Positions 13,236 to 42,506 of a stretch of 64,000 nt of DNA are shown one piece after another. A program made the translations under genes and the position numbers. Under the pieces are notes generated by a model. The model did not search any database and had not been told where the DNA came from. It was given only the letters and a program-made list of their open reading frames with translations. Within the stretch, counting starts at the first letter, position 1; each line of letters begins with the position of its first letter. The DNA comes from Catajapyx aquilonaris (Eukaryota): assembly GCA_000934665.2 (NCBI GenBank), contig KZ538222.1, positions 1-64,000 of the forward strand. The letters are read 5' to 3'.

Positions 13236-14498
13236 CTTGCAGGGTGTAACATGAAAGCCCACCGTGTGTTATAAATTAGTGACAGAAGCTTAATTATTGC
13301 CAGTTTTTTAAAAGGCCATTGAATCTATCAGGGAGCTGGGGGGGGGGGGGNGGGTCGAAAAAACTACATGCAAATTATTTATATTCTGCAAGGTTTTTTG
13401 CCTCTAGATTTCATTTGTCACACTTCTCTGACCCACTGCTAGGTCCCGCAGTACTTTTCCTCTTAATAATAATGCATGTAGAAATGATGGATAAACTATT
13501 GTTTATCCGCACCTTAACAACGTGGTCGGGGTCGGGCGGTCGGGGGGCCTCCCGACGGTTGGCAACGTTGCGTCGCAAACAATCGGGTGCCTTGATACTG
13601 CTGCCAGGCAAATTCGAATGCCTTCACGGTGGCTTGATGAAGTGTCGTTCTTTGGGTTAACGAACTGCAGCAACCATCATGGCTTTCATATTTCCCACCT
13701 CCTTCATTAATACTGTGGTCCTAGTACTCATCTGATCGGTTCGCATGGCAGGGGTAATAAGACGCCCTTTGTTGTGCTCTCCCGGCAACCGATTGTTTAC
13801 GACCCGGAGCCAACATGTTTGGAGCCCACCACGGCTTCCCAACCCTGCCGCGTCACTAGGTGCGGATAAACGATAGACTTTCCGAAATGATACAATATGT
13901 GACTCAGGCTTGTGCATAATTACCTATGTGTGTTTTCTGGTTTACTTGTAGAGGAAGAAAATGTAACAAGGTTATGAGGCTGTGAAGGAAAAGGGGGAGA
14001 GAAGTGGATATTTAGGACAGTTCTAGGGTGTTGTGGAGTCCCTAGCAGACTGGCCCTTTCATCATGGACATGTACTCAGACTGAGGGAATGAATGGGCCC
14101 AGAGATGAGGACTTGCCAGAAAAGTTGAAAATGGCGAACTTTTATATGCATCATGTAGTGCTGGTATGCAAATTTGCGGTATTGCAGTATGGTAGGGCCT
14201 ACTCCAGTTTTTAGTTGCAGCCACATGGAAATAAGAAAATAGATAGCTCACTGAGCTAGCTGACCACCTGTATCTTTGTAGGTTTTCTCTATGCGGTACC
14301 TTGGGAATATTTTAAAAAACACTGGCCAATGATTACATGTGGTCCTGTTTGGTTTGATATCACATGATCTAACATAGGGCTATAACATAACTTATATCAC
14401 AAGACAACATATTCTGCACAAAGTGTTAAAGGGTCTTCTATTGTGCATCTTTTCTGACAGATTTGGATGTGGAGATAATCTAAGAAGACTGCTTAGTG

Positions 14499-14768
14499 AT
14501 GTGGAACGAGAGAAGTGGAAAGCAATCTTCTGAACAGGAGGCACATGCATTCCTTCGGGAACGATTCCTCTTGGCAATGGCAAGCCTGGGAGATAGGACT
14601 ACATCTGGTCGATTCCAGCTAGCTGCAAACACAATGGTGGATGCCAAGTTTGTCACATGTGACCAAGATGTCAAGCATTTCTTTGTCTCTGACTTGAACA
14701 CACCCATTGGCATCGTCTCACACTCCATACTACGAGCATCAGACATTTTTCACTTCGACTTGCTATAA
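14499..14768 (+). CDS. Gemin7: Gem-associated protein 7 (SMN complex Sm-like subunit), 89 aa
   Basis: EQEAHAFLRERFL...FVTCDQDVKHFFVSDLNTPIGIVSHSILRASDI matches Gemin7 EQ.ARA.LRER.L...F.A.D.D...F.VS.L.TPIG....A.LR.SDI. An acceptor TTTCTGACAG at 14460 suggests an upstream UTR exon. Confidence 0.9.
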   Translation: MWNERSGKQSSEQEAHAFLRERFLLAMASLGDRTTSGRFQLAANTMVDAKFVTCDQDVKHFFVSDLNTPIGIVSHSILRASDIFHFDLL

Positions 14769-16085
14769 AAAGGCAGTTATGACTTTTGATAGTTCTGCCA
14801 CTGTTATAAACTGACCCTGGATACAGGAGAAATTTGCCCATCATGGAACTGCTGCTTTGTCCCAGTGCAGAATTTCCAGGTAATATCTGTTGCATGTAAT
14901 GGAAACATGTTTGGCAAAAACAGTTTTTGCAGAACACAGTGATTCCCTTGTAGCAGGTTTCAGTGTAGTAATAATAACCTCAGTAATGCTTTCACTCCTC
15001 TGGGATATATTTCATGGACATTTACTGTTTTGAATTACCGGTATACTTGCTGGAACGTTTTGCAAAATGTCCAGGTCCATGAGTAGGGAAGGGTGAATGG
15101 GGATATCTGCCAGAGATCCAAGTGGAAATGTATCCCTCTTCTGTTTAAAACATTTGGATGTCAGGCAGTCTTCAGTGGGGTAAGTCACTTGGGATTCTAG
15201 TGTACGACTGACTTCCATACAATACTACTAGTGACTTTTCAAGAGACTTACTCCTTGGTTGGATGTAAAGGCAATGGCTATTTGGATGTATTTTCTTTTG
15301 GAGGGAATTACAATGGAAGGCCAAAAAATTTTCTACCTAGGTATGAAGAACATGTGTTATAACTTACACAATGTCATTTTTTCTTGATGTAATCGCCCTT
15401 CATCTTAATGCACTTTCGCCATTTGTCTGAAAGTGATCCGATCCCACTTGAAAAATATTACAAAGTTTGGTCTGCAATCCATTGGTCTACCGCCATTTTC
15501 AATTCATTTTCAGCATGAAAACGACTTTCAGTTCTGTCAGGGATCAGAGTGGATGAAATATCAAATTACAGTTGAACATTATGGGTGATGTGGACCAGTG
15601 CGAAGCAATGAGTTACTGCTATTTATGACATTAAAAATTGATATTGAACGAGGTAATTGATGACGTATGTGATGTGGCAATATGCCCAAAAATTGACTAC
15701 TCCACCATAAGGGGAACTAATGGAATTTTCTTGAAATCATTGTCTGATTATGGAGGATTCTTCAAATCCCACATGACAATTATTGCCAAGTACACAAACT
15801 TACAAGAATTGCACCCCTGGTTACCACCTGCAAGCAACTCATCCAGCGGTGGACCTCCCCATTCTCCCCTCCCCTCCCACCTCCTGAAACAAAATTATTG
15901 CCTTCACAGACCATCAGTCATAAATGGAACACAGCTGAATTTTACGTTTTTATTACATTTTATACTAATATTTTATATGTAACTTTTTATCATTTGAATA
16001 TGTTTCCAAAACATAAGGAGTACATGTTTTTTTTGTGGTAAATCCCCACAGTGATCTGTTGTGGCATGTGGCGTTTGGAATAGCC

Positions 16086-16773
16086 TCATCGTCGAGGATT
16101 AGGACGCCCCCTGACGCCCCCTGTACGTCGTCCCTCAAGTCCAGTGTTTGCCTTCTTCAATCCCTTCCTTCCATACCCTTGGGGGCTGCTAGGTCCGGCA
16201 GGTGGTGCTGACTTCTTTCCCTGCACTACTTCCTTCATCTTTTGGACATCCTTCTCTATCTTCTGGTCTAGACGAGCCAAAATGTAGCACAGGGACTTCC
16301 GCATGCCCAAGCCGGGCTTCATGGCCTTCTTGCCTACTCTCGTCAGACGGTAGACACCCTTTTTCCTGCAGCCAACCAGACCATCTTTCAATGCCCCCTT
16401 CATTGCCAACAACAGCCTTCGATGGAACTCAACGTCGTCTGACATCTGCAGGAGTGGGGGCCTCACATATCACTCGATGTGATCCATGTCACAGCCTTCT
16501 CTTTGGCGTTCTGCTATGCATAAAAGGCAAAAGTGAAACAGTTTGCGGAAAGAATATTCAAGATAAAAATAATGAGTCACATTCTGCCATTTAAAATTTA
16601 ACCAATTGCCTTTAGAACATGCCTGCAATTATTGCTTCCATAATGAGGTGTCTATATGGGACACGTGGGAAGACTTGTGATGGCCTGCAACTCATTGGGC
16701 TCCAGGTAAGGGTCGGTGTGAAGGCAGGTGTATTTGGGCTGGACTGGGGCGAAAGTTGGTACCTCTTAGCCAT
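16086..16773 (-). pseudogene. linker histone H1/H5 (H15 winged-helix)-like gene with an in-frame TGA
   Basis: Exon 16773-16623 (...PRVPYRHLIMEAIIA), a GC-AG intron, then exon 16513-16086 (AERQREGCDMDHIE*YVR...EFHRRLLLAMKGALKDGLVGCRKKGVYRL followed by a K/R/G/P-rich tail). This follows the H15 pattern P.Y..MI.EAI...ER.G.S...I.KY...LK..V..G.L....G.F.L. TGA at 16472-16470. Confidence 0.65.
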
Positions 16774-17958
16774 CGTAGGATCTGGGTGAATCGGAACTAG
16801 AATAATTAATAAGAGACGGGGAGATTTAGAGGAGAGGTCCTAAATGTGCGTGTGACTTGGTCTGTGGTCACTAGGTATCTGAAACTTTGGAATAGGTTGT
16901 TGATATTGGATACGTCGGGTGGTTGTTCCTGGATACGTCTGTTGGGGCCGTAACTATGTACAGTGCAGGTCACCTAGGGAAGCGAGGACCCTGGATGCAA
17001 CTATATGCCAAATGTATTGAGTGATGTTGCCTATACCCTTGCATAGACCCTGCGGATGTTGGGATAAATCAAGGAAGGATGGAATCTTTGGGATGAGTGC
17101 CCCTTAGCCAAGAGCAGCAACAGTCTTCTTCATTCACTGTCGTATTAAAGACATATTGCAGTCCAGTCGTTACTTCTTCAAAAAATAATTACATTTTCAG
17201 AGGGGTAATGTGTACAATTTTACCATGCCATTTCTCTCTTGCATTGATTTAGATAGCTCCAGATTTCCTTTAGTATGATACTTGCATGAAAGGATGTCAG
17301 ATAGTGAGAGTTATAAGGTGTGTTGCACATACTGATTGAACTAGACTTTTATAAATGGTGATATTGACGGCATCCAAGAATGCATACGAAGAAAGGTGAA
17401 TTATTTCCCATAGAAGTATTAGCAAGCCAGACAGAAATACTGAAGGTGTATCATTACCTGAACTGCCAAGCCTTCAAAAAAGTTTGCCTGCTGTTTTTGC
17501 TGTCACATATCATGCACAGCGTGAGAGAAAACGTCGCCAAGCAAACTGTTGCTTTTTTGCCGGGCAACAAATCCTGAAAAGTCTGATAAAAACAGGGAGG
17601 TCGGTAATCACAGACACTACCTCTGCTGCATTTTCATTATTATAATCTACCCTTGATCATGACTGCTAATTTGATATAGAAGTGCTCTTAATAATAGCAT
17701 ATAATTATATCAGTCTGATGTTTTATCCTTTAGTTAAGCAAGTGCAGATACGGTGTTGCAATTAGTATATATCGTGATTGTAAATTATTGGTTTTACCTT
17801 ACTCTGAACCCCCCTGCATGTGATATATGTGTACAGGCCTACCAGCAGGATACTAGATTCGATCACCTACCTCTCCTCCCCCTCGCCATCCAGATATCGG
17901 ATTTAAGACGTTGTTTGCAATCATTGGCAGTGATAGTGCAGATGACAAACAGGAGACC

Positions 17959-18762: not shown

Positions 18763-19386
18763 TACTGAAAATCCAGATCCTAAAACCAGCTGAAGGCAAC
18801 TACTGATGATTTTATTCTACAAAGTATTATGGTATGGCATTCTGGTTTATAACATAGCATATTTTCTCTTATATAAAACTGATATCATCCACAAAATAAT
18901 GGATTAATGCGATTAATTTCAAGGACACGTATAATAAAATTGTGCAACAAGTAGTGTTGTATGAAAAAGTATTACTACTTACCAAAAGTAAACACCCTTT
19001 GGTCGGTTTTTAAAAATCCAAAAAATTAAACATAGCCACATAATAGATCCTACCTTTAGCGATTCCTACCACTGCAATGTACACAAACTCCGTGTCGATC
19101 AGAGCATTATTTGAATTGGGGTTGGAACTGTGCTTTTCATTGCAACCTGAAACGACTATATTTCCACGATTTAATTCGACAAAATAAGAATGATTTAAGT
19201 AATGGGATTTGAAGACCAGAAATGCAGAACGATCCGTCTCATTGTGGTCGAAAAATTAAGTAGACATTGTAAAACGCAGACCTTGAAACGTACTATCTGA
19301 CATTCTGCTAAAGCAAGTGTAGCCACAGAGAAATCAAAAATATAATGAGAATCTCACCCCATTTTATTTTCAATATCTGAGTGCAG

Positions 19387-22300
19387 GATAAAGCTGTGTC
19401 TCACTTTCGTACAGGCTTGGAAGAAGCCACATGTTTGAAGGATGACTTGATGAGCCCTGCATTCTCTGCTATTCCTGGGGATTATCGTCCATTGTATGTG
19501 TCCGTTCCCCTTTGTAAAAAGCAGTGCAGTGCCATTCACATGGGTCTTTCAGGCATGCAAACTGGAAAACTGTGTCTGTGTGCATTTCACGAAGAAGGTA
19601 GGTGGCATTTTCTTTTAGTTTATTTATTTTTTGGTCAACTTTGTCATGGTCCACGTCTGTCCTGCGTCTGTCTGCAGAGTTGGTCGACAACAACAATGTC
19701 GATAAATGCCCAGAGAATTGTGGCAACAAATCGTGCGGTGGAATTGATGGCTTTACATCTGTGTATTTTTCGGACACTAAATTGCAGGACAGCCCGATTC
19801 GACTTCAGCTGACGAAACATGCCACAAGTCAGGTAAGTTTTGCGATTGCTCCTGATATCCAATATAGTATAGTTTTGATCCAGACCAGTAGGTCTATATA
19901 GCCTACTACATGCATGTCATTGCAGGTTAAGATCGCTGCGCAGGAAAATTTCGAATCGTTTCCTTTTAACTTTGGAGATGGTTCTCCAATAGTAACTGTA
20001 CATGCCCCGTTTAGTGCAATCTACAGGGTGCCTGGGATATATGAAGTTACAGGTTAGTTGAGAATTCTGGATGTGGTGTATTGTTCATGAAGCATTTAAA
20101 GCTCTTTTCTAAATGCTGTAAATTCATCCAGCGTTTGGAAATGGAGATGACATCACCACAGCTACATTCTCAGTCCATGATATAGAAAGTAAGTTAGAAT
20201 CAGTCGAGTGCCCCACTGTAGCTGAACCTGGCATTGAAGCGGCTTGTCGTATTACCATGACTGGCAGTTCTCCTCAGCTAACAATATCTCACAAAGAAAG
20301 CACAACGAAGTATATGCTCCCAGGTGACGGCATAATTCTTGAATAAGTTGCTACAACTTCATATTTAGGTCTGTACTTTGTAGAGGACTTGAAATACTAT
20401 AGATTTCATATCTTTAAAGGTTCCAGCTGGATAACGTATGGAATACCTGTGCCACGAAGTCACATGAGAGAAATTTCGAATTTATTCAAAGCACAAGTGT
20501 TGTTGGTTCATTGGCCTGTTAGGGAAACTGTCAAGATTATGCATGTGGAATATTTTGCAGTTTCCAAAGGATCTATAATACTAAAGGTGAGGTTTACTGC
20601 TCTCTACACAATTTTGCCAGCACTATTTCCTCAGTTGAAATAAAAAAAAATTATGTTTGGGTTATTTATTTTTCAATAGATTCATAAGTACAATTCATAG
20701 TGATCTTTCCCTCAATTTGAATCAAAAATTAATCAAATTGGCAGCAGCAAAATTACCAGTATTTTAAAAACTTCTGACTGGTAAGTCAAATGAGAGAAAA
20801 TTATCTCTGCAAAGGTGTGCAAAGAGTGAAGAGCATCAAAGAGGATAATAAAGCCACTCAAAATAATTTAGAGAGCACTAGTAGGCTATTTTATCTACCA
20901 TGATGATAAAGATAGCCTAGTGTTTTATCTATAATTTATTGGCAATGATTGCTGGATGATACGAATGCCGCCCTTTCTGGTGCTTTATCATCTTTGTAAC
21001 TAAATACAATTAATTTTTCTGGGTTAAAGTTTAACCAGAAATCCAGATATTTTACATTATTTTAACAAATAAGCCTGACAAAGTTACTGTGATAAAATAT
21101 CCTCTTATAATTTATATGTTTTACTTATCAGATGTATAAAATGTGCGACGAAGATTATTCTTGCTCTAATGGACAAAAAATTGGCGAACTGATTGTAGAA
21201 GAAAAAGAAAGCTATGTTCTGAAAGGTGGAAACGTTGACAATGTCTCCGTGAGCGAAGAAATAAGCAAAGAGCTTCTGGCACAACCAGGGTATCTATTTG
21301 GTTTTGAGTGTGTTGATGGATGCGTTGGTCACAGGTGGGTTCTTTCGGCAGTGTCCCAGAGAAAATATCCATATTGATATTTTTACTGGGAGAGTTATTC
21401 TAACTGATACTTGAGACGATTACTTGCAGATTGTCTTCTAAGGAGGAAGGCGATTTAGTTGGAGGGAAACCTTTTCCTGGGGAGCATTATTTCCATGTTG
21501 TAACCACGATTCCAACATCTGTGCAGTTTTTATACACATGCTCAGATCCTTCCACTGAAGAGGCGATTAAAATTAGTGTAATTGTAGTTCACTATATTAG
21601 GGTATGCTGACTAAATAACACTATTAGCATTGGTTTTTTTTTGTTTGTAGAGTGGACACACAATCGAAATACGCGTTATTTCATGTGAAATACCAATTGA
21701 CGATATATCACTGAAAGGAAATTCAGTTGCTGTTGTAGGAGAAAATGTGACATATTCTGTGTTTATGAAGAAAGGACTTCCTATCACTATACGTCAAGAC
21801 TGGGGTGATGGACATGTCGCTCATACACACTATCAAGGTATGAGAACTTTTTTTCATGGGGGTCTCCCATATTACTTGTAAGTCATCCACTGCTAGGCAG
21901 GAAGGGCTTGCTTCCCGACCACCAAAAATGTCAAGGGAGACCAAAGGACACCTTCACAAAAGTGATCGGGTGGAATTTTGCCCCACTGCTAGTTACTGCT
22001 AACTTAGCAGTACCATTTCCAACACTCCTCTCTGGTATACTGCTGAGTTAGCAGTAACTAGCAGTGGGACGAAAATTCCACCCATCCTCTGCTGCTTATG
22101 AGTTCGTCTTATGAAACATCCGGAATCTCGATAACTAAATAACTAAATGTATGCAGAGTGGTGGAGCAGGAGGACATAATGTATTGACGATAATTTTGCT
22201 ACATTTTTGTCCCTTTTCAGGGACAATAACAAAATTAGATAGTGCTAGAATTTCTCATGCTTATCAGGAGCCAGGAAACTATACTTTGATAGTATCAGCG

Positions 22301-25300
22301 AGTAATAGGCATCATGATGTCTGGACCCCAAATGCCACTTTAAATATCAGCGTGTCGCCACAATCGCCATGTGAATTGGCGCCTAAGAAGATTACATTTC
22401 AGGACAACCAAGGTGAAATTTCCCAGCTATAAGCCTGTTAACTTATCAAGAGGTTGTAAACTAATTTAGTGTTTTTTTTTCAGTACACGACTGCAAGAAT
22501 TACTCAGGGGTAGCTCATTTTCAGGGTGGCAATATCAAAACTGGGTTTCTCATAAGCAATAGAAACGAGGAGAGGAAGATTGCAGTGAGATCTTTGAGAG
22601 ATCAGGAAGTCTCTTTTCGTGGCCGTCATTGCTACCACCCTCAAGCTACTATTCTGAATCACTCCTTGGATTTTCTGCAGGCTCCAGGATATCTGACATC
22701 TGAACAGATTCGGTTGCAAACGAAGGTGCTAATTGATTGCAGCTACATCATCCATGCAAGGTAATCCATGTTTGTTATTGACTGGAGTGTGTATGTGACT
22801 AATATATTGCAATCTCTGCACAGAAAATATTGGAACATTTCTCGAGTCGATCAAATGAGTGGAAAGGCAATTGAAGTGATTGCCATAGACAAATGGTGTG
22901 AATCATGGAATCGATCCGAGTTGATAATTTCTCCTGGGTTTCTGCATCCTGGAACATATAGTGTCCAGTATACCATCACAATGAATGGTACGTTGTTGTA
23001 ATGCTTTGTCAGGTGTCAAGTTACAAACTAATGTTAATAAACATTAAGTTTCAGATTCTGAATTGCATTCTAATATGTTAAAAGGAACTGATTCTACTTA
23101 CATTCGAATCAAGTTAAGCCCTTTGGAGCCGTACATGTTCAATGGAATTGCCTCGCGACTTCGCGTAGGTGTGAACCAATCCATTCTATTCGAGCCTGGG
23201 TTGTGGTCTGTGGATCCAGGTGATTCAAAGGGTAATCAATTCACGCTCACATGGTTTTGTCAACCTGTAATAGACACGCAAACATCTAATGCTAGTGGCT
23301 GTTTTGGAAAAGGGCCCGGACAGTTGGCCTACTACTCTAAAGTGCTGAATTTGTCAGCTCGATGCTTCACTGATCCAATCGGACGCAGATTTGAAGTGAT
23401 CGCAGTCGTCGCCAAAGGGAGCAGACGTGCGACAGCACGCATTGAGTTAGAAATAATCTCATCCAGTACACTTTCTGTTCTGATTGAATGCATATCCTCT
23501 TGCATCAACATTGAAGGCAACATTATAGTAAATCCTAATTCGGGATTGCGCCTACGTGGCCGTTGTATTCCAGCATGCTCCACAGACACCGAATATGTAT
23601 GGACAGTATTCAATTCAAGCTGTGTCTTGTCACAATATGCGAAGAACAACCAGAGTGGAAGTGAAGTTGCCATACCAAAAGAGATTACTCAGAGTTCCAA
23701 AGAGTTTAGCGTCACTTTTATGGTAAGAAGCAGGGAGTCAGAAGCGTCTGCAACACTAGATGTAAGAGTGAACCAGACACCCAGAGGCGGCAAGTGTCTC
23801 GTCAATGCCACATCAGGCGTTACTCTTATTGATACACTCTTGATCACATGTGAATCATGGGACGATCCTGACGGGATATCTGAGTATTCGTGTCACTTGT
23901 TGGATGCTAAGGGAAGAAAACACCACATTTTAGCAATTAGCTGTATGCCAGTGGATGTGATGCTTCCAGTGGGGTTAAATCAGCTCTACTGCGACATTAT
24001 TGACAAGCTTGGAGGGTATACCCGAGTTCCAGTGGCCAACATCACCATGGATATTCCCAGTTTGGAAGAGTATCAAGATTTTTCCTCCTCAGGGAAACTG
24101 AAGAAATTTGCTGCGTTAGGAGATGTACAACAATTGATGACGTATTTTCAAGCGCAATCCTCTGTATGGCTTGCATCTAAAGCGTACCAGCTGAACATCT
24201 CACAGATTGGACACGACATTGAGTTCATGACTGAGTTGCTAAGCTTGGAAGCAAATGCAGCTACATTGGCGCAAATTAACGTTGTTTCTTCTTCACTGAG
24301 TGCCGCCTTATCTTACGTTTTTGTCGGGGATGACGGTCCTCTCGTAATTGGATTGAAAGCACGTGCCTATGCGACCAATGCCATTAAAATGTTGTCTGAC
24401 CACGTTAAGCACATTCCAATCACTGATCCACGTGAAATGGTGTACCTGATCGAGCACGTGGCGGAGGCGGCGCTAGCTCTTATGGTGAGCTCGGCGGCTA
24501 TCTTGCATAAGAAGAACTGTAGCTACATACCTTTCAGGGACCTTGAAACTGTCAATGAGTTAGATTATGACACTAATATAGAAGGAAAACTGGAATTCAA
24601 AATGCCTGTAGGACTGAACAAGCAACAATGTGAAAATATCTTGAACACACTGTCATATAAGGCGTCGAAAGAAACGCCACAAATTTTAGAATCACATAAG
24701 TTGTTATATCAGTCAGCTATTGACAAAATGGTGAGAGATGAACTATTGACAATGACCTCTGAACATGGGGTACATGTGCTACTAGCTAAAGTGCATCAAA
24801 TGAATTTGGAAAATCACATGTTAGAGCTTGGAAATGGAAATGTGTCATTTCCTAGTGGTATTTGCGTGGGGAACGAGGGAGATGTTTGCACTGAAAACCT
24901 TGCCATATCAGCAGTCAATTGGCCAGTTGTCACTCACAATCATGGTCCAACAACGAAGCTATTGTCCCACGATGGAAACGTAATGGATATTACCCTACTA
25001 AGCGAAGAACTGGAAGACCAAACTGTTAGTAATCTTAAGACACCTATTGTTTTGAACATTTCTAGAAAGGGACTGGACAGAATGTCCGAACCAGTTTTTG
25101 TCAACACGAGCCTGAAGTTGGAGGGACTGAGAGTGCCCATTATATATCATGCCTTCAACGTAACAAGAGAAGACTCAAGCATCACGATTGAATATTTCCT
25201 TAGTGACGATGTCTCCCATAATTTTGTTCTGTTGATGGATCACGAACGAATGCCCACTCTTGATAGTTTCCAATGGATTATACCACTGGCTAGCATTCAC

Positions 25301-28300
25301 TCTGATGGGAAAGCATGTTACAATATTTTCTTCAACAATGATATGGTTGGAAAAAGGACTGGACGATTTTTTGCTGGAATTGCAGAATTTGTCAGTGGAT
25401 TTAATTACAGTACCTCAGATACTAAGATCAAATTGGATCATACTCACCTGAGACGTCAATTTTCTACAGATTATTTCATTAGAATTTTTACTTCAGGATG
25501 TTACTATTATGATGACAATACAAACTCATGGAGCAGCTCTGGCATGAAAGTAAGTTAATTTCTCCAAAGTGTTCGTTAATGTGCATAACATGTTGCAATT
25601 TTCGCAGGTTATGAGATCGTCGTATTTGACAACGACTTGCGAAACTAATCATCTAACTTCTTTTGCCTCTGGATTCTTTGTTGAACCAAATACCGTTGAC
25701 TTCAATTATGTGTTTGCACATGCGAGTTTCACCGACAATCTAACAATTTATGTTTGCATAATTATTACATTGGCGTTATACATACTTATGCTGATTTGGG
25801 CCCGGAAGCAAGACAAGAAAGACGCTAAAAAGGTTGGTTATGATGGGGACAATTTCATCCACAGCTCACCCATCTTGCTATATTTCCAGCTTGTTTGTCA
25901 ACTTTTGCCTGATAACAATCCAAAGGACACTTATTTGTATGAGATGTTAGTTTGTACTGGTAACGCAAGTGATGCTGCAACAAGTTCTAAAATTTCGGTA
26001 GGCCTATGTCTTGCCATATCAAAACGTCAGACCTGCTTTGACCAATCATGCTTTGTTGTGCAGTTTATTCTGAGTGGTGAACTTGACGAGACTGAAGTAC
26101 GGACCTTCGGAAAACCAAGCAGCAATCTTTTTAGAAAGGGAGGAGCTGACCAATTCATTCTCTCTGTTCCAAGGTTAGCTAATTTTCTCAGTTCAGCATA
26201 AATAATATTCTAACTATAATATTATTTGCATCTTCAGGCCATTGGGGAGCCTTAATTATTTACACATATGGCACGATAACAGTGGAAAAGGCTGTCATGG
26301 ATCATGGTTTCTGAATCTCGTAGTTGTCAAAGACCTACAAACAGGAGAAACTTTTGAGTTTATAGCAGATTCATGGTTTGCAGTAGAGAAAGGCGACGGA
26401 GCAGTGAGTGCTTATTTTTAAAGTCTAAAATTATATTGTTAAATTGACGTTTTCTTTCAGATAAGCCGAGTTCTGCCAGTAGCCAGCATAGAACTGAAAG
26501 ATGACTTTGCATACTTGTTTCACAGCAATTCTCAAAAGAATTTACGTGATGGTCACCTTTGGTTCTCTGTATTTCTTCGTCCACCCAAAAGTCGGTTTAC
26601 ACGTGTACAGCGTGTATCGACGTGTGTATCTCTTATGTATCTTTCTATGCTAACTAACGCCATGTGGTATGACCGTACAAAAAGTGACCCTAAAGCGAGT
26701 GTTACGTCATTTGGACCATTTTCACTTTCACTTGAGCAGGTAAGGAGATGTAATCATATCATGAACAGCAAGTATAAAATACAGTATTTATGTACCGGTA
26801 CCACTTACCACGTACAGGTCGGCGTTGGATTATTATCAAGTATCATCATGTTTCTTCCGTCCCTTGCGATTGTTACGTTATTCAGAAAGTCCCGTCCGTA
26901 TAGGCTGCGTCCAAATCGTATTGCAAAAGCAGTCCATGAATCAGGTTTGCCAGGGTATTAGTTGTTACAGTGCACAAAAACACCATGCCATGCTATAAAT
27001 ATTATGAAATGTGCCTAATTTCTATTTTATTTTACAGAATGGCAGTTCCAAGGAACAGACACACAACATGGAACTAAAATTATTGGTCAAACGGACTCAA
27101 AACGCAACAGGTCAGGTCCAAATTAGTAAAGGCCCGTTTACACAAGGCCGCTGATAGCAAAATAATATAAGCTGTGGAGATCGCCCCGCCTCAGCACTCT
27201 GACTGGCTTATGTTTTGCTGTCAGCGGCCTCGGGTAAATGGGCCTTAACTTCATCATCACACAGTACACAAAGTTATATTTTGGCTTCTCATTTTAGGAA
27301 ACCAAGGTGTAGCTTACCATGGCCATTTCAATATGTAGCTTGGTTATTGGTGCTTTTGTGCATATGCGTTTCAATTTTTTTCTTGTGGAGCTACGGGATT
27401 CAATTTGGCAATGAGAAGATAAGGAAATGGCTGACTTCATTTTTAGTATCCCTGATGTCATCGGTTTTTTTGACAGAACCAATAAAGGTAATTTAATTTT
27501 CACAGGTTCACTGTATTGTGCACACTGATTTCCGCTGATTTCCGTGTATAAATGGAAATAGACTTACACTGGGTTATCGTCCATGACGAGCGAGTTAGTT
27601 TTAGTTAGTTAGACAATGTAGTAGTAGTAGTAGTATGGAGTGAAGAATATTTTTTGCAAAAGGAATAGTAAAACTATTGGCTATAAGCTTAAGACCTTAA
27701 GTGATTATTATCTCTTAAAGTGTTTGTTTCTACTTTTGTCAGGTGATACTTGCAGCCGTCATTTTCAGTCTCACTTGCAAATCAAATGGAAACCGTGTAG
27801 GTGACGATGACGCTGACTGCGATGAAGAAAATTTCACATTAGTTAAAAACAATCGTCAGAAACCTCCAGGTATGGTAATCATTTTGCAGATGATGATGGT
27901 TAACACCACCACTACCACCACCAATGACAACAACATGAATAATTAATAATGATATTAACATTAATAATTGACAGGCTTTCTGAATGTACGGCATGCACAT
28001 AAACCTACACAATCACAGAATGCCAGTATAAATCGCGATGCCAGAAGTGCCAGATTAAAGGAGATAAAAATGTGGTGGGTACCGATCATAACTTTAATGA
28101 ACAATACATGCAAACAAATTAATACTTCCATTGTTACATTATGTTAATTTTGAACTTTTTTAAAGGGAATTTGGCAATGAAATTGCAGCATATTCAGTGT
28201 TTCTGCTTGTTATCGTAATTTTATCATACGGTAATCGAGATCCTAACGGATATTATCTGCAGAAATGCCTCCGTGAGAGCTTCGTGGATCGACATAGATT

Positions 28301-31300
28301 TGCAAAAGTGAGTTGCTGCTTTGTAACCAGTACAGTGTGGAGTACAATGAATATGGTACATTCTTAGTTAGAATATGTGACTGAGGTGAAACCTGTATGA
28401 ATGCATGATTAACAGGTGAATAACACGAACGACTTGTGGCACTGGATACACAAAGCCGTCATCTCAGAGCTACACACACAAGCTTGGTATAATGCAGAGC
28501 AACCTTATGGCCTTGGGGGATTTTTGAACGACAAAGTTAACCGGCTCCTTGGGTATGGTGTCATTCGTCAGGTGCGGGTCAAGGCAAGCACTTGCAAGTA
28601 AGTTCTTAAAAAATTACAGCACTTTGCACGCTCCAGTAATTATTACTTATTAGTTATTACTTATTGAGTTACGGTTTTCTTTGCCAGGGCTCCTTCTTCT
28701 ATGACCCATTTTGGGACTAAATGTGCTGCCTACAGTCGCATAGTAAATGAAGACACACTTGATTATTGTGTTCGTTGGCAGTTTCCCAACAAGACAAGAC
28801 AATATAACTCAGAATGTTACTGGGAATCATTTAGGTGAGGCGATTATAGCGCATTTTTAATGGTTCCAAATGCTAAAAAGCTGGCCAATATCAATAAATA
28901 ATTGTCTTTTGTTGTGAGGGTAGTGCTTCACCTTAACGGTATCTTGCACTCAATCAATAAATAAAAATTGGGAAACAGTTTAATTCCTTCCTGGGTGAAG
29001 GTTATAATACTTTTTACTATTTTCTGATAAGTCATTAATGTATATTTTAGCTATTTTTATTTATTCATTTATTTATTTTATTTATTTAGCTACCCTGTTT
29101 CAGGGCAGGGCCCTCTTGGGGGGACACAACTCTCAGATACAGATAATCACCCATGTAGCAGTACTCTTAAAAATAAATCCTTTTCCCCACATTATCAAAA
29201 AAATTAAATAGACAGTATGCCACCTCTTTTGGCAGGTTCCCAAATAATAGGTGGGTCTTATCAGCGGGAAAAACCCTCAGATCTGACACAAAATTCTTCC
29301 TGGGCGTAATAAAGAAAGGGCAATTGTACAAGACATGATGCAATGAGAAAGTCTCGTGAGAGTTACACCAAGTACAGGGAAGTGTATCATTGAAAACAAT
29401 TTTCTGGCCGCGTATACAGGGTGGACAAACTTCAAGTGTCGTTTTATAACGGCGGCGATTAATAGCAGTGATTTTGCGATGACGTAGCAGCGACGTGTAA
29501 AATGTCCCACTTCGGCGCCATCGAAGTGGGCCATTTTACACGTCGCTTCTACGTCAATCGTAAAGCACTTCTATTAATAGCCCATATAAAACGACACTTG
29601 AAGTTGGTCCACCCTGTATATATTGAGGGGGATTGGTTTCTGAGGTTGGCCATCAGCCTTGTGATAGGCAGTGGTAAACAAAAGGCCAAATACCAAGGCG
29701 GAGAAGATTCCGGGACGAATATATTTTAGCTATTTAAGTACACGATTCACATTATTTTCCTAAACAGTGATGCAATAAGTAGAAACTACCTCAATTCTTC
29801 ATTGCCCTTAGTTATTGCATTTTACTATATTAGTTTAATACAGGGTCATCGAAAAAGAGTGTCCCAATTTGAAAACCCTATATCTCGGAAACATGTAGAC
29901 ATATCTGAAGATTTAAGTTTTGAAATGCTAATGCCCGATGGCACCAACCGAAATTACCAATCCGATAGCTCCTAATTGATCGTTATAGGAGCCCTTTTAA
30001 CATGTGCTAACGATCCGTTAGGTGCCATCGAATCGGTAATTTCGTTAGTGCAACCGGGCATAAGAAAGGTCTAAAGTTTTTATCTCACCTTAGTTTGTTT
30101 CGATATGAGCTTCATGTGTCGCTCGGAAGATTTAAAAGGCGGTAATCGGTGTTGTGCCAAACCCTCTCAATCATATCTGGAGTTACCGTTGCAATCCTAT
30201 CCCGTAGGTGCTGGATATCTTGGGTCTTTACACGACACACATTGTTCTTGATGATTCATATAAAAAGTCACCTCATCCATGAACAAACCTGTTGTAAGAA
30301 AGTTTCATTTGTTCAGCCTCCCAGTGTGCGAAGTATTTAATGAGAAGTTTCGCCATGCCTAGCCCCTCCAGAAGCCCAGCTCTTACCCCGATTGACTTTT
30401 TGTGTGGAGACACAATCATATGTATGGTGAAAAGATCCGGCATGCCGCAGCATTACTAGCACCTATGAGATAAGATTGCAACGGTAACACCAGACATGCC
30501 TGAGCAGGTTAGGCAAGACACAGATTACCGTATTTAAATTTTCTGAGTGACATGTGGAGCTCATATCGAAACAAATTATGGCAAGGCCAAAACTTGAGAC
30601 ACTTCTGATCATTTCAAAACTTAAAACATTAACATATGTCTACAAGTTTTCGAGTTATAATCGAGTTTTCAAATTGGGACATTCTTTTTCATTGCTGACC
30701 CTGTATAGCTTTCAATACTTTACGACAAGCAGTGAACCTTCTGATTTGCAGTATTGGTATGAATAAGACCTACTGGAAAGATTGGCCACATTTCTTTGAA
30801 GGGCACACCTGATTATGATTTCTCATAATTGTCCGTAATCAGTTTTCTTAAGGAAGCATTTGAGTTTATTCATGATTTTGTGCTACTACATGACAGAGTG
30901 CAGCTCACTAAATTGTGCAAGTGGTCAACCGCCTGGAAAAACCGATACGTACACATGTGCCGAACTGACAGAGGGAGGCATAATTATCTGTCAGTAATGG
31001 ATAACGCATTATTTTGGGAAAATCACTGGTACATCAATGTGGCTGTTCAAAAAATATATTGAGGTTCTCAAATTGGCAAGGATGTAGTGTGTAGGGTGCA
31101 AATTTTCTCAGACAAAATGGCATAATACTCTTCAATTAATAATGATGTCCATTATACTTGCTGTGATGTCATGTTGGTATCATATTTTGCAAACACCCTG
31201 CAGACTCTATTGATGTGCTCTGTTGATTGATTTTTAGTAAGCTTCATTTGGATAATTTTACTTTAACAATTGAAGGGGTCGGTGCAATACTGCCCTAACC

Positions 31301-32559
31301 CTCCCAAACCTGATTTCGAGAAAAACGCATTTGAAAGGTTGAGATGACCCATAAATCACATTTTCCATGGGACAATTTTCATTTCTACCCCAATATACAA
31401 GGCACTAATAAGGAACATTTACGTGCTATTATGATGATGATGATGCACCACCCACTCTAAGAATGAACAAAATAAGGTGGCCGCGTGTGAAAAAAAGGGT
31501 TAGGGCAGTATTGCATCCAACTTGTAATGCGAACTAAATTGGTCAAGAACGTATCACAAGTTAGTTTAATGTTCATATAAATGATATCAAATGAACTGTC
31601 GTGAGATGAGGAACATTTTGGTGGCAACTGGTTTAACCTAGAGTGTAAAATAAAAATGTTAAAAAAATCGCATTATTGAGCAAAACGGACACATTTCATA
31701 TTGTCCAATGTCATGGTTAAACACACGCTAAGGGTGTGGAATTAATATGGTAGGTATACATTGTCATTTGATCATTACTATACTGTTGAAGGACAACATC
31801 ACAGGTCAAGCAGTCTTGGAAATAAAACTTCTGAAATGTCTGTTTTCCACTAATTTGGTCATCTTTGGGGTCATTTTTCTCAGTGTGGGGCTGGGTCAAT
31901 TTTTAAGTTATCGCAGAAACGTCTTTTCATGCATAACACAGCGGTATAAGAACTGTTCACTTACCATGAATGGTTCACTCGAAACATCAAATAACGTGGA
32001 GTAGCCTATAGAGGGCTTTTTCCGACATTTCAGATTTATTATCTCCAAGTCTGCTTTACCTTGATGTTGTCCTGCAGTAGTAATGACTACTGATGATCAG
32101 ATGACAATGTACCTACCATATTAATTCCACACGCTTAGCATGTTTTGACCTTCAGTAGGCCACGGATCCTACTCAGGACCCCAGAAACCCAAATCAACTG
32201 TCACAATGTATTTAACAATGACATTGGACCATATGAAATGTGTCCGTTTTGCACAATAATGCGTTTTTTTTTAGCATTTTAATTTTACAATCTAGGCTAA
32301 CCCGTTGCCACCAAAATGTTCCTCATCTTACGTCAGTTCATTTGATATAATATGAACATGAGGGTACAACAATAACTTCACCTGAATAATGGTCCTTCCG
32401 GCTCCGTTGTTGCTGAAAGACGTTGCCATATCTCTGTGGGATTTTCACCTGGGAGACTCTTAACTTTATTTTTGGCAACACTTCAATGATTTTTATATCA
32501 AATTATGAGATGGTCGAGCCACCAAGTTGTCTGTCTTGACATGGAATGACCCATCTACG

Positions 32560-32616
<57 letters not shown>

Positions 32617-35600
32617 TTGCTGCAATGGACTACTACTTTGCACATCATCATTATCAGGATCGAACTCTGAATCTTAGGTACTCTCATCCACATCGGTGTC
32701 ATCAGGCAAAAGCTCACTATTTAAGCCCAACTGGTGAGACACAGCTGCTCGCAGCTGCATCCTGCGCGCTGCAATATTTGAAGACGGAGGGTTAGGGCGG
32801 TTTTGCTGCAGAAAAGGCATTCATAACCTTGCAGCAATAAAAACATTGTTTGATTTCTCACTGACAAATGGCAGAAACTGGACAATCTCAGTGTACTTTA
32901 TTAGATATTTGAGTGTAGTATATGGAAGTGCGCGAAACTCAATTTGTGTCATTTGGTGGGTTAGGGCAGTATTGCACCGACCCCTTCAATTTCTCAGTGA
33001 TTGTTGTCATGAAGACAGTACCCTACTAAAATAGCAAAAAGGCAGAGCTTCTGTAAATGATATGAAATAGGCTGTATTTATCGTATGAGCAAGAAAAATG
33101 GTTCCACGTGTAGGCTAGATAAGTTATTGTTATCATTAAAATTGTTGCGAAAAATTTGTGATATTGGGCCAGCTTTTTCAGGATTTACGTAATTCAGGTT
33201 TTTAAAATGAGGTGTCACCATCAGATACAAGACAGCTGAAGAATTGGAAGGATATCCTCTGGTAGGACACATAGATGCTTACAGTGGTGGAGGATACGTC
33301 GTACCTCTGCGAGGAAGGCAGGAGGAATTGAAGATGCAGCTCAAAAACCTTCAAGCTTATGGTTGGATAGACAGTCGCACTCGGGCTATTATTTTAGAAT
33401 TTTCTACTTACAATTCTCAGGTACAGTATATACTTGTACACCCATAAAAAAATGGCTTGCTATGCGAAAGGTCCCGGGTTCAAATCCCCACCCGGAAACA
33501 AACCTTTCACTTGCATCAATTGGTCGTGACCCGCGCCTAAGGAGGCGTCTTGGCAACCTGACCTCCTGGGGGACTGCACCTGGCCCACCGCTGGACAATG
33601 CACCTGCGTCCCCTCCCCAAATCCCCAACCCTTACCCTATTTCCTAGTACTTCTTGCACCAGTGATTCGAAGTAAAAACAATTAGAAAACTGTATGGTGG
33701 TCTGCCACCCCCCTATAACGACCAAGTAGTTGTATCACGGGGTATTTTTTGTTTGTTTTTTTGTTTTGATTTTTGTTTTGAAAAAGCTCAACCTACTTCT
33801 GTCAACTTCACCTGTTTCAGTATAATAATAGTAACAAGATAATTTTGCGTAATTTTGGGGTTAACATTAATGAATGCTTGCAAAAATAGGGATGACATGA
33901 TGAAATGCATTTTTACTATGGCTATTGATATTTCAGGTAAATCTCTTCGGAATAGCTACAATGATGGCAGAGTTCCTCCCTGGCGGTGGGGTACATCCAT
34001 TTTGGCGCTTCGATGCAGTGCACCTCTTTCATTATAATGAGGGCTTCGGTCTCGTCCTTCTCATTTGCGAGTTCGCTTTCGTCTTGTTCATTTTTTATTA
34101 TACCTACCGTGAGGTTTCGAACATTCGCAAACTGAGGAAACAATACTTCTTTGACTACTGGAACTTCGCAGAACTATTTTTCTTAGCAATTTCATATGTC
34201 ACGTTTGTTGTCTATATTTGGCGTTACTTTGCGACCCGAGCTGTTACTGAGACATTTTCTCGGACACATGGAAATGGTTATATTAAACTTCAATTTACTG
34301 GGCTGCTGGACGATATATTCGGCTACCTGATAGCTTTTATCATGTTTATATCGCTTCTCAAATTCAACAAGTTGTTTCGCTTTAATAAGAGAATGGGCAT
34401 TTTGGGTCACACACTTCGAAAATGTTGGGATGATTTGCTTGGGTTCTTCGTGGTATTTTCCATCCTTTTCATCACTTATGTTCAGTTCTTTTACTTGCTT
34501 CTTAATGACGACATGGAAGAATATTCTAATTTTATATCGGCGCTAGAGACATGCTTTACGGCCATGCTAGCCAAATTTGACTTCGAGGACATGCAGCGTA
34601 CTTCTACAATGGCTGCCGTTGTTATATTCTTCTTCACGTTAACCACCACCTACTTTATGATCAGCATTCTTCTGATTATTATAATAAATTCTTTTGAGAA
34701 GGTAAGTGTGCTCAAGTATGTCTGAATTACTACATTGTGTAATGTGGACAATATGTGTGGCTTTATGCAGGTGAAGCGTGACATTTCCAGCCACCCCAAC
34801 GAGTATGAGATCATTTCTTTCATGACAGAACGATTCAAACGCTTTCTGGGATTGAAACGCAGAAATGCAACTGTTCATCCCGCTGGCAATGGCGAGTGTG
34901 TTGCCAAAACATTGGAAAACGACGAACAGGTGAGAAAATAATGAAATAGTGTGTCTGGTTGTAGTGTACTATGGGCGCCAAAAGAATTGACCGGAGTTGA
35001 TGGGTATATGGTGCTATATACCCATCAAATCCGGTCAATTCTTTTGGCGCCCATAGTACATGTCTTGTTCAAATTATTTCTGCAGTTTTTCCCTAAGCAA
35101 TTACACTGCCATAACATTCCATTTAAAAAACACCCTGTCAAGTGTGCTTCCCTCCGAGCGAAAATTGGGTTGTCGCCCTTTAATTTTAATTGAGAACGCA
35201 TTAGTGTAGTGTGTATAATATGTAGAAGGCAGTTCATCGGTCGAGTGGACCCGATGGCAGAGGAGGTGGGGGAGGGAAAAAGGTGGGACGGTGCATAGAG
35301 GCTCCTTCCACCAAGGACTTGGATTAGTTACGGGAGTACACATATTCCCTGCTGGCGTAGACTTGGGAAACAGTGGTTACTGAAGCATGCGTGTGTAGTG
35401 CACCCACTGAAATCGTAACTTTCTTTCTTGCGACAGATATCTCAACTACCTAATAAAGTGGATGCATTTTTGGAACACGTGAACAACATCTACTTTGATG
35501 GGATGTTGGATTTGAATGGAAAAGAGGCCCTAAAACACATGTATCGCGAAAAACATCACAGGCCCATCTTCAGTGCTGGTGATGGAGGCAACAGTAGTGT

Positions 35601-36891: not shown

Positions 36892-39800
36892 CTAAAACCA
36901 AATACGGTAGTTCAAGTCCCACTTATTTTTTCTCTTCAGTTCTCGGAACTCTACTGCATCCGCCTGAGTGATCCCATTACATTTTCTAATTTTCAACACT
37001 CTGTGTGGATTTTTCAGCCCCAGAAGCCTCTTAATAGGGGCTGACGTGACATTGTGGCAGTACTCCATCTCCCACTCATGCAGATCCTCAAATTTGTTGC
37101 ATGCCAATACATCAGCCATCAGCTGATCTGTAAGGCTTGCTGTGAATCGTAGTTTCACATGAGTAAGTTTTGGTGACATCAGGGTGGCTTTCAAAGTGGA
37201 TTCTGATCCATCAACACTTTGCATCGCTTGAATCCCTTGCATCCCTTGAATCTCGCAATGAAATTCTAGCCTGCGGAGATTTGGAAATAGGACCTGGGGA
37301 TCCATGATGGTATGGTAGGTGGTGATTTCCTGGAGGTGCAGATGGGTGATCTTGGACCACTGCAAGCCAATTAGCTCTGCATTCACACAGGGGAACCCCT
37401 CAAGGTGTAAGACGGAGAGGGTCTCCAAGTGGCACTCTAGGACTAGCATCACAGAACGGTGGAAGGGCTCCCATTTCACCTGGCACGAAAAATGCAAGAT
37501 TTACCACACAGAAAAAAAAGGTCCTTAAAGGAGCACTACCTCAAAAATAAAAACTTGAAATTGTACTTTTAAAACATCACAACCTTCAAAAAGCATGCTG
37601 GTGAACATCAAAAAATCTTTGGACCTTCCAAATGGAAGACGGATTTTCAAGGTAATAAACAGGCGAGAGCAGGTGGCTGCATGTGATGTCAAGAGTAAGG
37701 CCGGTTCACACGTGGCCACTTTCAGCAGGGCCGCAACTAGGGGGGGGCGAGCGGGGCGCGTGCCCCGGGCGCCGTGGGTCAGGGGGCGCCGCGGTGCGGC
37801 GCCCCCTGACCCACGGCCCCACTTCCAAAAATAATAATTTTCCATTAAACGCGAAGACTGAAGGAGACGTGTTTTTTAAAAAGAGGCTAGAACCCGTCCC
37901 AAATAGTATCATTTGTCACCTTTGGTATAGAGGCATAATGTGATATTTGGCGTCAAACAAGACATATTATATTATATCTGTGAATGTGATAGGTTCCAAA
38001 ATTTCAAATATTTTCCCACAGACAGTAATAATATTTAGAGTCCGGATTCTTAGGCAACTGCCTGAACAGTTGGGATGGTTTTGTGAAGAGATCTATCTGT
38101 TTCATAAGTGTAGGATGTGGAAAATGAAGGTTTTATAGTGCCTAAAATGGCCTATAGTTCAGGGTTTTGGGAACAATTTTGCCTATTCTGGCTTTTTGTG
38201 CCTTTTCTTGCCTACTTGGCTTTTTTGGATAGTTTCGAACTTTTTGAAGCAATTTCGGGACTTTTTGGGCTTATTCCTTCACAGGCGTGTTTGGTTTTTT
38301 GAGGAGTATTTTTTGTGCTCCTGAAAGGACCAAAATCGTGCAGAAGTCATACGAATCAGGTTTCCGTGACACGTATTCCAAATATTTTTCTAAATTTTCC
38401 TCTGATTGGAAAAATATTTGGCAACATATTGTGCAAGTCTGGTGCAAGTGGAAACTGACTATAAGCGGTAGAGTCCAGAGCAAGAGTCTTTTGCCCAAGT
38501 TTTGTGATTTTATGTCACTTTATCGTTGTTATTTGGTTTTTCCTATGGTTTGCGAGCTTTATTTATACTTTAGGCCTATAAAATTATTCTGGCTTTTTTA
38601 TTTTCTGTAACATTCCTCCATATGCCCAAAAAAATAAACTTTTTGTGCCTATATGAGGTTTTTTCGTGCCTAAAAATCTGGACTCTAATAATATCTACAC
38701 AATATTCACTGTCACAATTAATCACTAAATAATACAAAAGAAGAGGGTAGTGTGTTTGGACTCAGAGTGTTGCAATGATGTGTTTATGTTTAGGATTGTT
38801 TTATTTTCAATTTTTTCCAATTTCTCCTAGTTATGACAGAAATTTGTAAGAATACTCTTGAAGTCCCTTCAAAATGACTATAAGCAGGTAACGAGTCTAG
38901 GTAAGAAAGCTTGCGAAATTCTTGAGAAAGATTTTTTTTTTTTGGAAAAAGGGCATCTTTGGTACCTAAAGTTTTCAATGGGTGTATTTAGTCAGCATAA
39001 TGTTTTTTTAGAAAACATCCATTGAGTGAATGATTTTCTGCGTCTTCTGTGGAAATAGTCTAATTTTTTTTGCAACGTATCTTGCAAATATTTCATATTT
39101 TTCCACTCGTAAACAAAAAACCACAAAATATGTACCTTTTAACTCCTAATTCATATTACTATGTTCAGATTGGCGGTTCTCTTTTGTATTTTTTTGATAG
39201 GAATTAAAATAGTATAGTGTGTAAAATAAATATTAAATGTTCTATCGAACCAAAATCAAAACAATTAAAAGTAAGATTAATACTTTGAACTACAATTTAA
39301 AGAAATATTGCTTTGAATGAAATATGCCCCTAAAATCATCCTTTAGACCTCAATGTTAAAATTAAGTCAGGAATTATTATACATTGAAAACTTCGAATTC
39401 CCCGGTGTGGGGGGGGGGGGGGGGGNCTTAGTTTGCCCCGGGTGACAAAGAACATAGTTGCGGCCCTGCTTTCAGTGGCAGCAACTGGCCACAGCAACTG
39501 ACCACTTTAGAAAATACATAGGATTGAATAAGAGTGTGGCCAGCGGCCACATGTGAATGCTCTCATTCAATCCTGCGTATTTCCAAAAGTGGTCAGTTAT
39601 TGCTGTGGCCAGTTGCTGCCACTAAAAGTGGCCACGAGTGAGCTAGGCCTTACTCACTTCAACAGTGCAGGATTTGCTTTTGTCACCATTCACGGCCATG
39701 TCTGACGCTTTTGTCACTGTGAGATGTAACCATGGTCTTAGAATAGTAAGGTCTGGTCACTCCCACTTAGGGTCCTGACGGGGTGGTTTGCGGCAGGTGG

Positions 39801-42443: not shown

Positions 42444-42506
<63 letters not shown>

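Follow-up and report, generated by a model that had tools for sequence, protein, structure and literature searches.

A linker-histone-like locus with a predicted GC-AG intron and an in-frame TGA is probably a recently inactivated member of an H1-derived protamine-like family

The linker-histone-like gene on the minus strand of the window (the whole 64,000-nucleotide stretch analysed here, contig C394 of an animal assembly of 286 Mb and 20,583 contigs) is probably a young duplicated and recently inactivated pseudogene of an H1-derived protamine-like (PL) family. Its intron, of the GC-AG type, appears to be a lineage-specific gain with the acceptor in a duplicated target site, a feature absent from the original prediction for this locus, and we consider it likely, with good confidence, that this intron arose through an insertion and that selection maintained its splicing. 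The same prediction had named recent pseudogenisation and a null allele among its explanations of the premature TGA, and these are the leading readings here as well; the TGA is found in contigs of three sequencing runs, and GC3, CpG content and tail charge are all reduced relative to the family.

The predicted anatomy was borne out, since the ATG at 16773, the GCATGT donor, the two NAGNAG acceptors and the one in-frame TGA all lie at the positions that had been given for them. The intron starts with GCATGT at 16622 and may end at TAG (16514, proximal) or CAG (16511, distal), with exon 2 beginning at 16513 or 16510; both joins are in frame to the terminal TGA (16088-16086), and the spliced model contains a single internal TGA at 16472-16470, which is codon 65 or 64 depending on the acceptor. 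Further intron signals are the lack of any AG from 16585 to 16515 (a 70-nt AG-free zone), a branch-like TTCAC at 16537 and a pyrimidine tract. The features of the locus are as follows:

16774 to 17130, minus strand: upstream region, promoter or 5' UTR candidate, duplicated together with the gene (85% identity to the copy on C2197)
16623 to 16773, minus strand: exon 1 (151 nt), with the ATG at 16773, an S/T-P-rich N-terminal arm and helix 1 of the winged-helix domain, ending in CAG at 16623
16511 to 16622, minus strand: predicted GC-AG intron (112 nt, or 109 nt with the proximal acceptor), donor CAG/GCATGT, acceptor TAGCAG
16519 to 16621, minus strand: AT-rich insert forming the body of the predicted intron (103 nt)
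16511 to 16518, minus strand: 3' copy of the 8-nt direct repeat CATAGCAG, coinciding with the NAGNAG acceptor; putative target-site duplication
16086 to 16510, minus strand: exon 2, with helices 2 and 3 and the wing of the winged helix, the linker, an eroded G/K/R tail and the terminal TGA
16470 to 16472, minus strand: premature in-frame TGA in helix 2, context GAG TGA TAT
15949 to 15954, minus strand: AATAAA polyadenylation signal, in a context common to C285 and C160 and altered in C2197

The gene is flanked by Gemin7 (14484-14768, plus strand) and by a PKD1-like gene starting near 19381 on the plus strand. The latter (19381-34725) is large, encodes WSC, PKD, REJ and polycystin-channel domains and stands head to head with the H1-like gene. 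Elsewhere in the window there are leucine-rich-repeat exons (36892-44559, minus strand) and a DUF255/thioredoxin-like gene (57445-59876, plus strand), which we take to be SPATA20-like.

The genome contains five intact H1/protamine-like relatives of 151-288 residues, three of which (C285, C160 and C299) were found by searching with the other two:

C285, L044 1318-1965: intact, intronless, R/K-rich tail
C160, L045 1414-1947: intact, intronless, R/K-rich tail
C299, L080 (-): intact, intronless, R/K-rich tail
C1593, L026 1486-2048: intact, two exons with the intron after the domain, long K/R tail
C4602, L024 from about 1288-1327 to 1929: intact, two exons with the intron after the domain, long K/R tail

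General H1 profiles did not detect the window gene in the following scans. Its two exons, scanned separately, gave no row for Pfam PF00538 (Linker_histone) at E<=10, the locus is absent among the 33 matches of a PF00538 search of its own genome, and a profile built from the canonical H1s of the genome alone left the spliced model undetected, with 149 of 2000 shuffles scoring as well. Profiles made from the relatives do detect it: that of C1593 and C4602 gave the spliced model 30-34 bits over positions 1-73 (best of 2000 shuffles 7.4 bits, none reaching the score), and that of the three closer, intronless relatives gave 49-51 bits over positions 2-76 (best of 2000 shuffles 8.3 bits, again none reaching it). 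With this second profile exon 2 alone scored 30.5 bits and rose to 49-51 bits once exon 1 was joined; exon 1 by itself matched profile positions 2-13 at 9.2 bits. Consistent with this, a genome-wide search with the C160 domain recovered the locus at E 7e-5, BLASTP within a seven-sequence set aligned the window protein to C160 and C285 at E 1e-15 to 1e-17, and a nine-row tree placed it, on a long branch, in a clade with C160, C285 and C299 (support 94/92).

The connection to H1 passes through relatives in the same genome. C1593 and C4602 exceed the PF00538 cut-off (40.5 and 43.4 bits), C285 falls below it (E 0.00096), and C160 and C299 have no Pfam Linker_histone match. The modelled domain of C1593 (pLDDT 86.7) has H1/H5 globular domains and the MORF winged helix as its best structural matches (TM 0.74-0.82, E 0.001-0.009 for ranks 1-12). 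For the exon-2 piece of the window gene, with helix 1 left out, the model is weak (pLDDT 68, pTM 0.49), with the recognition helix and the wing visible as a helix at 27-42 and a hairpin at 46-56, and its top three matches, the H1-type winged helices MORF WH, H1.0 and Hho1p GII, are not significant (E 0.36-0.52). A Pfam match to Mrr_N (E 0.02-0.1, below cut-off) was dismissed as a generic winged-helix echo. From the relatives' profiles, the tree, the Pfam matches of C1593 and C4602 and the structural matches of C1593, the locus can be assigned by homology to an H1-derived protamine-like family, with exon 1 supplying helix 1. Thus, the H15-like domain originally proposed stands as homology over the whole globular domain, established via relatives in the same genome, and fails as a direct Pfam match of the separately scanned exons; the reading as an H1-derived, protamine-like gene with two exons is supported by the family profiles and the tree.

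The winged-helix head expected of a PL sperm nuclear basic protein (SNBP) is present by homology in the window protein, and what the protein lacks is the open frame and the protamine-like tail. Its last 60 residues contain 27% R+K and 12% R, compared with 42-60% R+K and 27-52% R in the five intact relatives. The R/K/G-rich tail that had been described is thus mildly basic, and relative to the family it is depleted of arginine rather than enriched. The 30-50-residue Arg/Lys-rich stretch by which PL proteins are recognised in the accessible text of PMC13148410 is missing. A sperm chromatin-packing role of the ancestral gene would follow from the architecture of the family.

Outside this genome we found little. 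Word-indexed protein database searches with the C1593 and C160 domains returned no relatives, since none of the 72 candidates for the first domain and none of the 11 for the second reached E<=0.01; this is weak evidence of their absence. With exon 2, phmmer against 1.84 billion representatives gave three matches, all to repetitive proteins lacking an H1 domain and judged to be chance, and the single ESM Atlas match of the window protein (0.77) is a lead only. Our literature search found no paper on this locus, which is no proof of absence from print. Within the genome, six fragments or stop-bearing pieces, L061 (C3208), L062 (C1938), L071 (C6720), L056 (C6373), L057 (C4854) and L083 (C724), look by eye like decayed members of the family of the window gene, which suggests frequent birth and death. 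There are also many canonical H1 copies (L005-L033), several with nonsense codons or frameshifts, an H1 domain that continues into an H2A-like frame (L020), and an internal exon on C1449 (L034 1417-1791) whose H15-like domain lies right at the Pfam cut-off and which probably belongs to a larger chromatin protein.

A second copy of the window gene, extending from about 17130 to the 3' UTR, lies on C2197. It is heavily damaged: insertions of 2, 5 and 4 nt shift the frame, one codon is nonsense, and 290 nt are deleted, a loss that is also present in the run contigs. We rejected the possibility that it is the other haplotype: over 14 kb compared, the two loci have in common only the gene region and dispersed repeats, and contig depth is similar. 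Since the flanks are unrelated over this distance, C2197 is a paralogue, and the divergence between the two copies is about 15-20%. C2197 keeps the intron at 92% identity, with identical ends, the GC donor and the TAGCAG acceptor being unchanged, and therefore the GC donor is older than the duplication.

None of the five intact PL relatives has an intron at this position, and canonical H1s are continuous there. C2197 carries the exact 8-mer CATAGCAG at the end of the exon and again at the end of the intron, and in the window the 5' copy of the repeat is eroded to GCAG (4 nt, 16626-16623). The five matching bases beyond the splice-site CAG have a chance probability of about 0.001, and the end repeats of two other family introns measure 1 and 2 nt. 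The direct repeat in C2197 points to intron gain by insertion, the NAGNAG acceptor apparently being the duplicated target site itself; because of this, splicing to 16510 would remove the insert and one repeat exactly. A third copy of the insert, 90 nt long and beginning at the same 5' end, is present on contig C906 (L003 1090-1600), where it adjoins a short tandem array and a long near-perfect hairpin. Three genome searches each gave three matches, at two independent sites, as lower bounds. The insert has ends of the form CAT...ATG plus an 8-nt sub-terminal inverted match, and 24-30% of shuffles fold as well. Since only three copies were found and the inverted ends are not significant, it does not appear to represent an introner family, and an active introner or MITE was rejected for the same small copy number. 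Retro-loss of an ancestral intron was also rejected, given that several losses would be needed and that C285 shares upstream motifs with the window gene. These motifs, near 16961-16949 and 16871-16864 in a five-way DNA alignment (the second also in C160), together with the polyA context shared with C285 and C160, argue for DNA-level duplication from an intronless ancestor. Short motifs, GTACATAG, TCAACA and GTGACCAC, are kept upstream in otherwise diverged members (L044 about 1160-1285, L045 about 1290-1350) and may belong to a testis promoter or 5' UTR element that the family has in common.

It could be argued that the insert was never an intron, that it killed the ancestral gene, that both copies have drifted since, and that the target duplication happened to create the GC-AG pair. 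In favour of this, the donor is non-canonical and has T at +4, C906 carries a 90-nt copy of the insert, and the window copy has a long branch and AT drift. We consider this improbable, mainly on the evolution of the window copy. Without splicing, the frame ends three codons into the insert. Taking the neutral rate from the non-coding DNA between the copies (12-15 non-triplet indels in 625 nt), 5.5-6.9 frameshifts are expected per neutral lineage in 576 coding nt, and the window copy has none (P 0.001-0.004 over four gap settings; 0.0001-0.008 from the upstream region alone), a test that is open to ascertainment, as this copy was picked as the intact-looking one among several decayed copies. 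Restricted to the ATG through the domain (332 nt of verified frame), 3.2-4.0 frameshifts are expected (P about 0.02-0.04). All three polarisable upstream indels are on C2197, and the window locus may for this reason simply gain few indels. The linker resembles C299 in a multiple alignment, pairwise BLASTP with composition adjustment gives no significant alignment to C299, and the tail frame is not firmly tied to any relative.

Other measures agree with a gene that was translated. Indels between the copies are multiples of three in six of nine coding cases, compared with eight of 23 non-coding ones; of 46 differences 17.5 are synonymous, a share of 0.38 where 0.265 would be expected (P 0.04, with 83 codons included and 7 omitted because of gaps or stops); and omega is about 0.59 overall and 0.47 in the domain. 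The identity of the intron ends in the two copies and the retained polyA signal likewise favour past function. The 70-nt AG-free zone and the pyrimidine tract also speak against an insert that was never spliced, and because C4602 uses a GTATGT donor, T at +4 is evidently tolerated in this genome. The absence of frameshifts where about 5.5-7 are expected thus argues that the GC-AG intron was probably spliced. In the domain the window copy has 17 derived substitutions and C2197 three (P 0.003; 23 versus 3 before dropping four sites misaligned at an indel and two at the stop), and this excess fits long relaxation as well as adaptation. The synonymous share of the window copy's own changes is borderline (8 of 17, P 0.055), its GC3 is 0.57 as against 0.75-0.85 in the relatives, and its CpG observed/expected ratio is 0.5 as against 0.8. 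Taken together, these measures are consistent with a gene that remained translatable while it was relaxed or diverging, and that later acquired a stop.

This stop, at 16472-16470, aligns with the K that precedes Y in helix 2 of H1, as had been predicted. A sequencing or assembly error at these bases is extremely unlikely, because the contigs assembled separately for all three runs, which derive from one sample, show no differing letter over 15500-16537 (depth 19-27); the points in favour of an error are the fragmented assembly (20,583 contigs) and the possibility that the runs are the assembly's own source. The contig over the TGA is unbroken, and its depth equals that of a neighbouring contig (27.2 vs 26.5, 26.2 vs 26.2 and 18.7 vs 18.1). 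A further run, X5, covers just 15674-15850 of the window. Contigs drop rare variants, and the TGA is seen in one sample.

The proposed origin of the TGA from CGA did not find support. At the aligned position C285 has AGC, C160 and C299 have GGC, none of the five intact relatives encodes arginine there, and the residue is variable among relatives (S, G, G, E, T, K). In C2197 a 4-nt insertion lies at the site, and the codon reads AGC, CGC, CAC or CAG according to its placement. A CGA-to-TGA change is possible but unsupported, because even the shortest path from AGC or CGC to TGA takes two substitutions. As 1.7 nonsense codons are expected under neutrality and one is observed, the TGA does not date itself.

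The TGA could also be a segregating null allele, the gene being functional in the species and the sequenced sample homozygous for the nonsense allele. This, the main rival, is rather unlikely but deserves consideration, given that there is only one lesion in 576 coding nt, that promoter motifs, splice signals, polyA signal and the invariant residues of the family are all kept, and that the reads come from one sample. Against it, the contigs of all three runs hold no second allele and depth is level, although contigs drop rare variants, and GC3, CpG and tail charge are eroded.

Recoding of the stop would make the locus a "pseudo-pseudogene", with a full-length testis protein produced by tissue-specific readthrough, by A-to-I editing that turns UGA into a Trp codon, or by selenocysteine insertion. 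Before as well as after the TGA the frame and the key residues of the domain are preserved, and because the position is variable in relatives, many residues would be tolerable there. We nevertheless consider recoding highly improbable. An Rfam search of 14500-17500 gave four weak matches at E<=10, none to a SECIS family; a simple scan of 16085-15600 found no SECIS-like core; and RNA folding around the TGA found no structure beyond shuffles (26-67% as stable), although divergent elements could be missed by scans of this kind. Stops in the context UGA-U leak less than those in UGA-C, and ADAR editing is disfavoured by a G on the 5' side. The genes of the family, moreover, terminate normally at TGA. 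To the fuller version of this idea, a living, fast-evolving H1-derived germline chromatin protein that depends in testis on both GC-AG splicing and a recoded UGA, we give very little credence; if true, two leaky steps would tune or restrict output. Skipping of the stop through other in-frame AGs (before 16438, 16384, 16336 and 16333) was rejected since each removes helix 2 or more, the nearest of them sitting 7 nt behind an out-of-frame CAG, and re-initiation at the ATG at 16446 since its product would be without helices 1 and 2. If the gene is transcribed and spliced, its product would now be a peptide of 63-64 residues. This would include the arm and helix 1 but only a portion of helix 2 and, judging from the structure of H1, should not form the DNA-binding fold.

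Inactivation of a young duplicate, the reading that we prefer, can be set out as a sequence of four events. An intronless PL gene like C285 or C160 would first have been copied at the DNA level together with its promoter and polyA signal, whose motifs are present in the flanks. About 104 nt of AT-rich DNA would then have been inserted at the end of helix 1, with the 8-nt target duplication seen in the repeat: the exonic CAG would have come from the first repeat copy, the GC donor from the start of the insert and the TAGCAG acceptor from the second repeat copy, with splicing to the distal CAG taking out the insert and one repeat exactly. After a second duplication the C2197 copy decayed and the window copy kept its frame, the latter most likely being spliced by the U2 spliceosome and translated while it evolved fast and lost its arginine tail. 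Finally, a nonsense change in helix 2, seen in one sample and presumably fixed, would have left the 63-64-residue peptide lacking a complete DNA-binding domain; the five intact paralogues presumably cover the function.

In this reconstruction the locus documents, neatly but without surprise, how genes of a sperm-chromatin family turn over, and it includes one well-resolved intron birth, in which a duplicated target site would have become a NAGNAG acceptor and the end of an insert a GC donor. The two copies together suggest that a non-canonical new intron is tolerable for a long time in a fast-evolving gene. For the evolution from H1 to protamine in this lineage C160, C285, C299, C1593 and C4602 are better targets, and only proof of recoding would make the window locus itself important.

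Among known systems, the accessible parts of the literature describe H1/H5-derived PL sperm nuclear basic proteins in Nasonia (Nv-PL1/Nv-PL2, PMC13148410) and Pteromalus (PpH1V1/PpH1V2, PMC10264595), as well as insect SNBP precursors (PMC12216123). As described there, the insect PL proteins share with the window family a winged-helix head and a basic disordered tail, a 177-216-residue size class, a polyA signal and fast evolution, and the wasp variants also contain introns, as does the window copy. The intact C160 and C285 fit this description well. Unlike the wasp PLs, the window copy has a premature stop and is without the 30-50-residue R/K stretch, and the likeness observed is one of architecture rather than sequence. 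In those accounts the wasp PL genes are mostly single-copy, whereas here there are at least five intact relatives and several decayed pieces.

For the intron, the closest parallels are the newly gained introns of Daphnia pulex, which the available text of PMC4202315 attributes to staggered double-strand breaks and which include one GC-AG case among 120 derived introns. Like the window intron, they consist of a short insert with direct repeats at its ends and are absent from relatives. The Daphnia introns are, according to that text, cDNA-checked population polymorphisms, whereas the splicing of the window intron is deduced from its evolution; the window gain would also be older, going back before a duplication whose copies now differ by about 15-20%, and the genome contains an additional, incomplete copy of its insert. 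In introners, as far as the accessible text of PMC9860276 goes, target duplications of 3-9 bp supply a splice site, GC donors reach up to 50% in some families and splicing restores mRNA length, as we propose for the window intron. Introner families are given there as having 5 to over 2000 copies, whereas for the window insert three copies at two independent sites were found, and its inverted ends are short and non-significant.

The turnover of the window family resembles the birth and death of sperm chromatin genes in Drosophila, where SNBP genes are described, in the available portion of PMC9917458, as undergoing duplication, fast divergence and repeated pseudogenisation. The Drosophila proteins belong to the HMG-box type and are tied to sex-chromosome conflict, whereas the window family is H1-derived. 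Pseudogenisation by a stop codon is a known turnover route for sperm-type genes such as this one.
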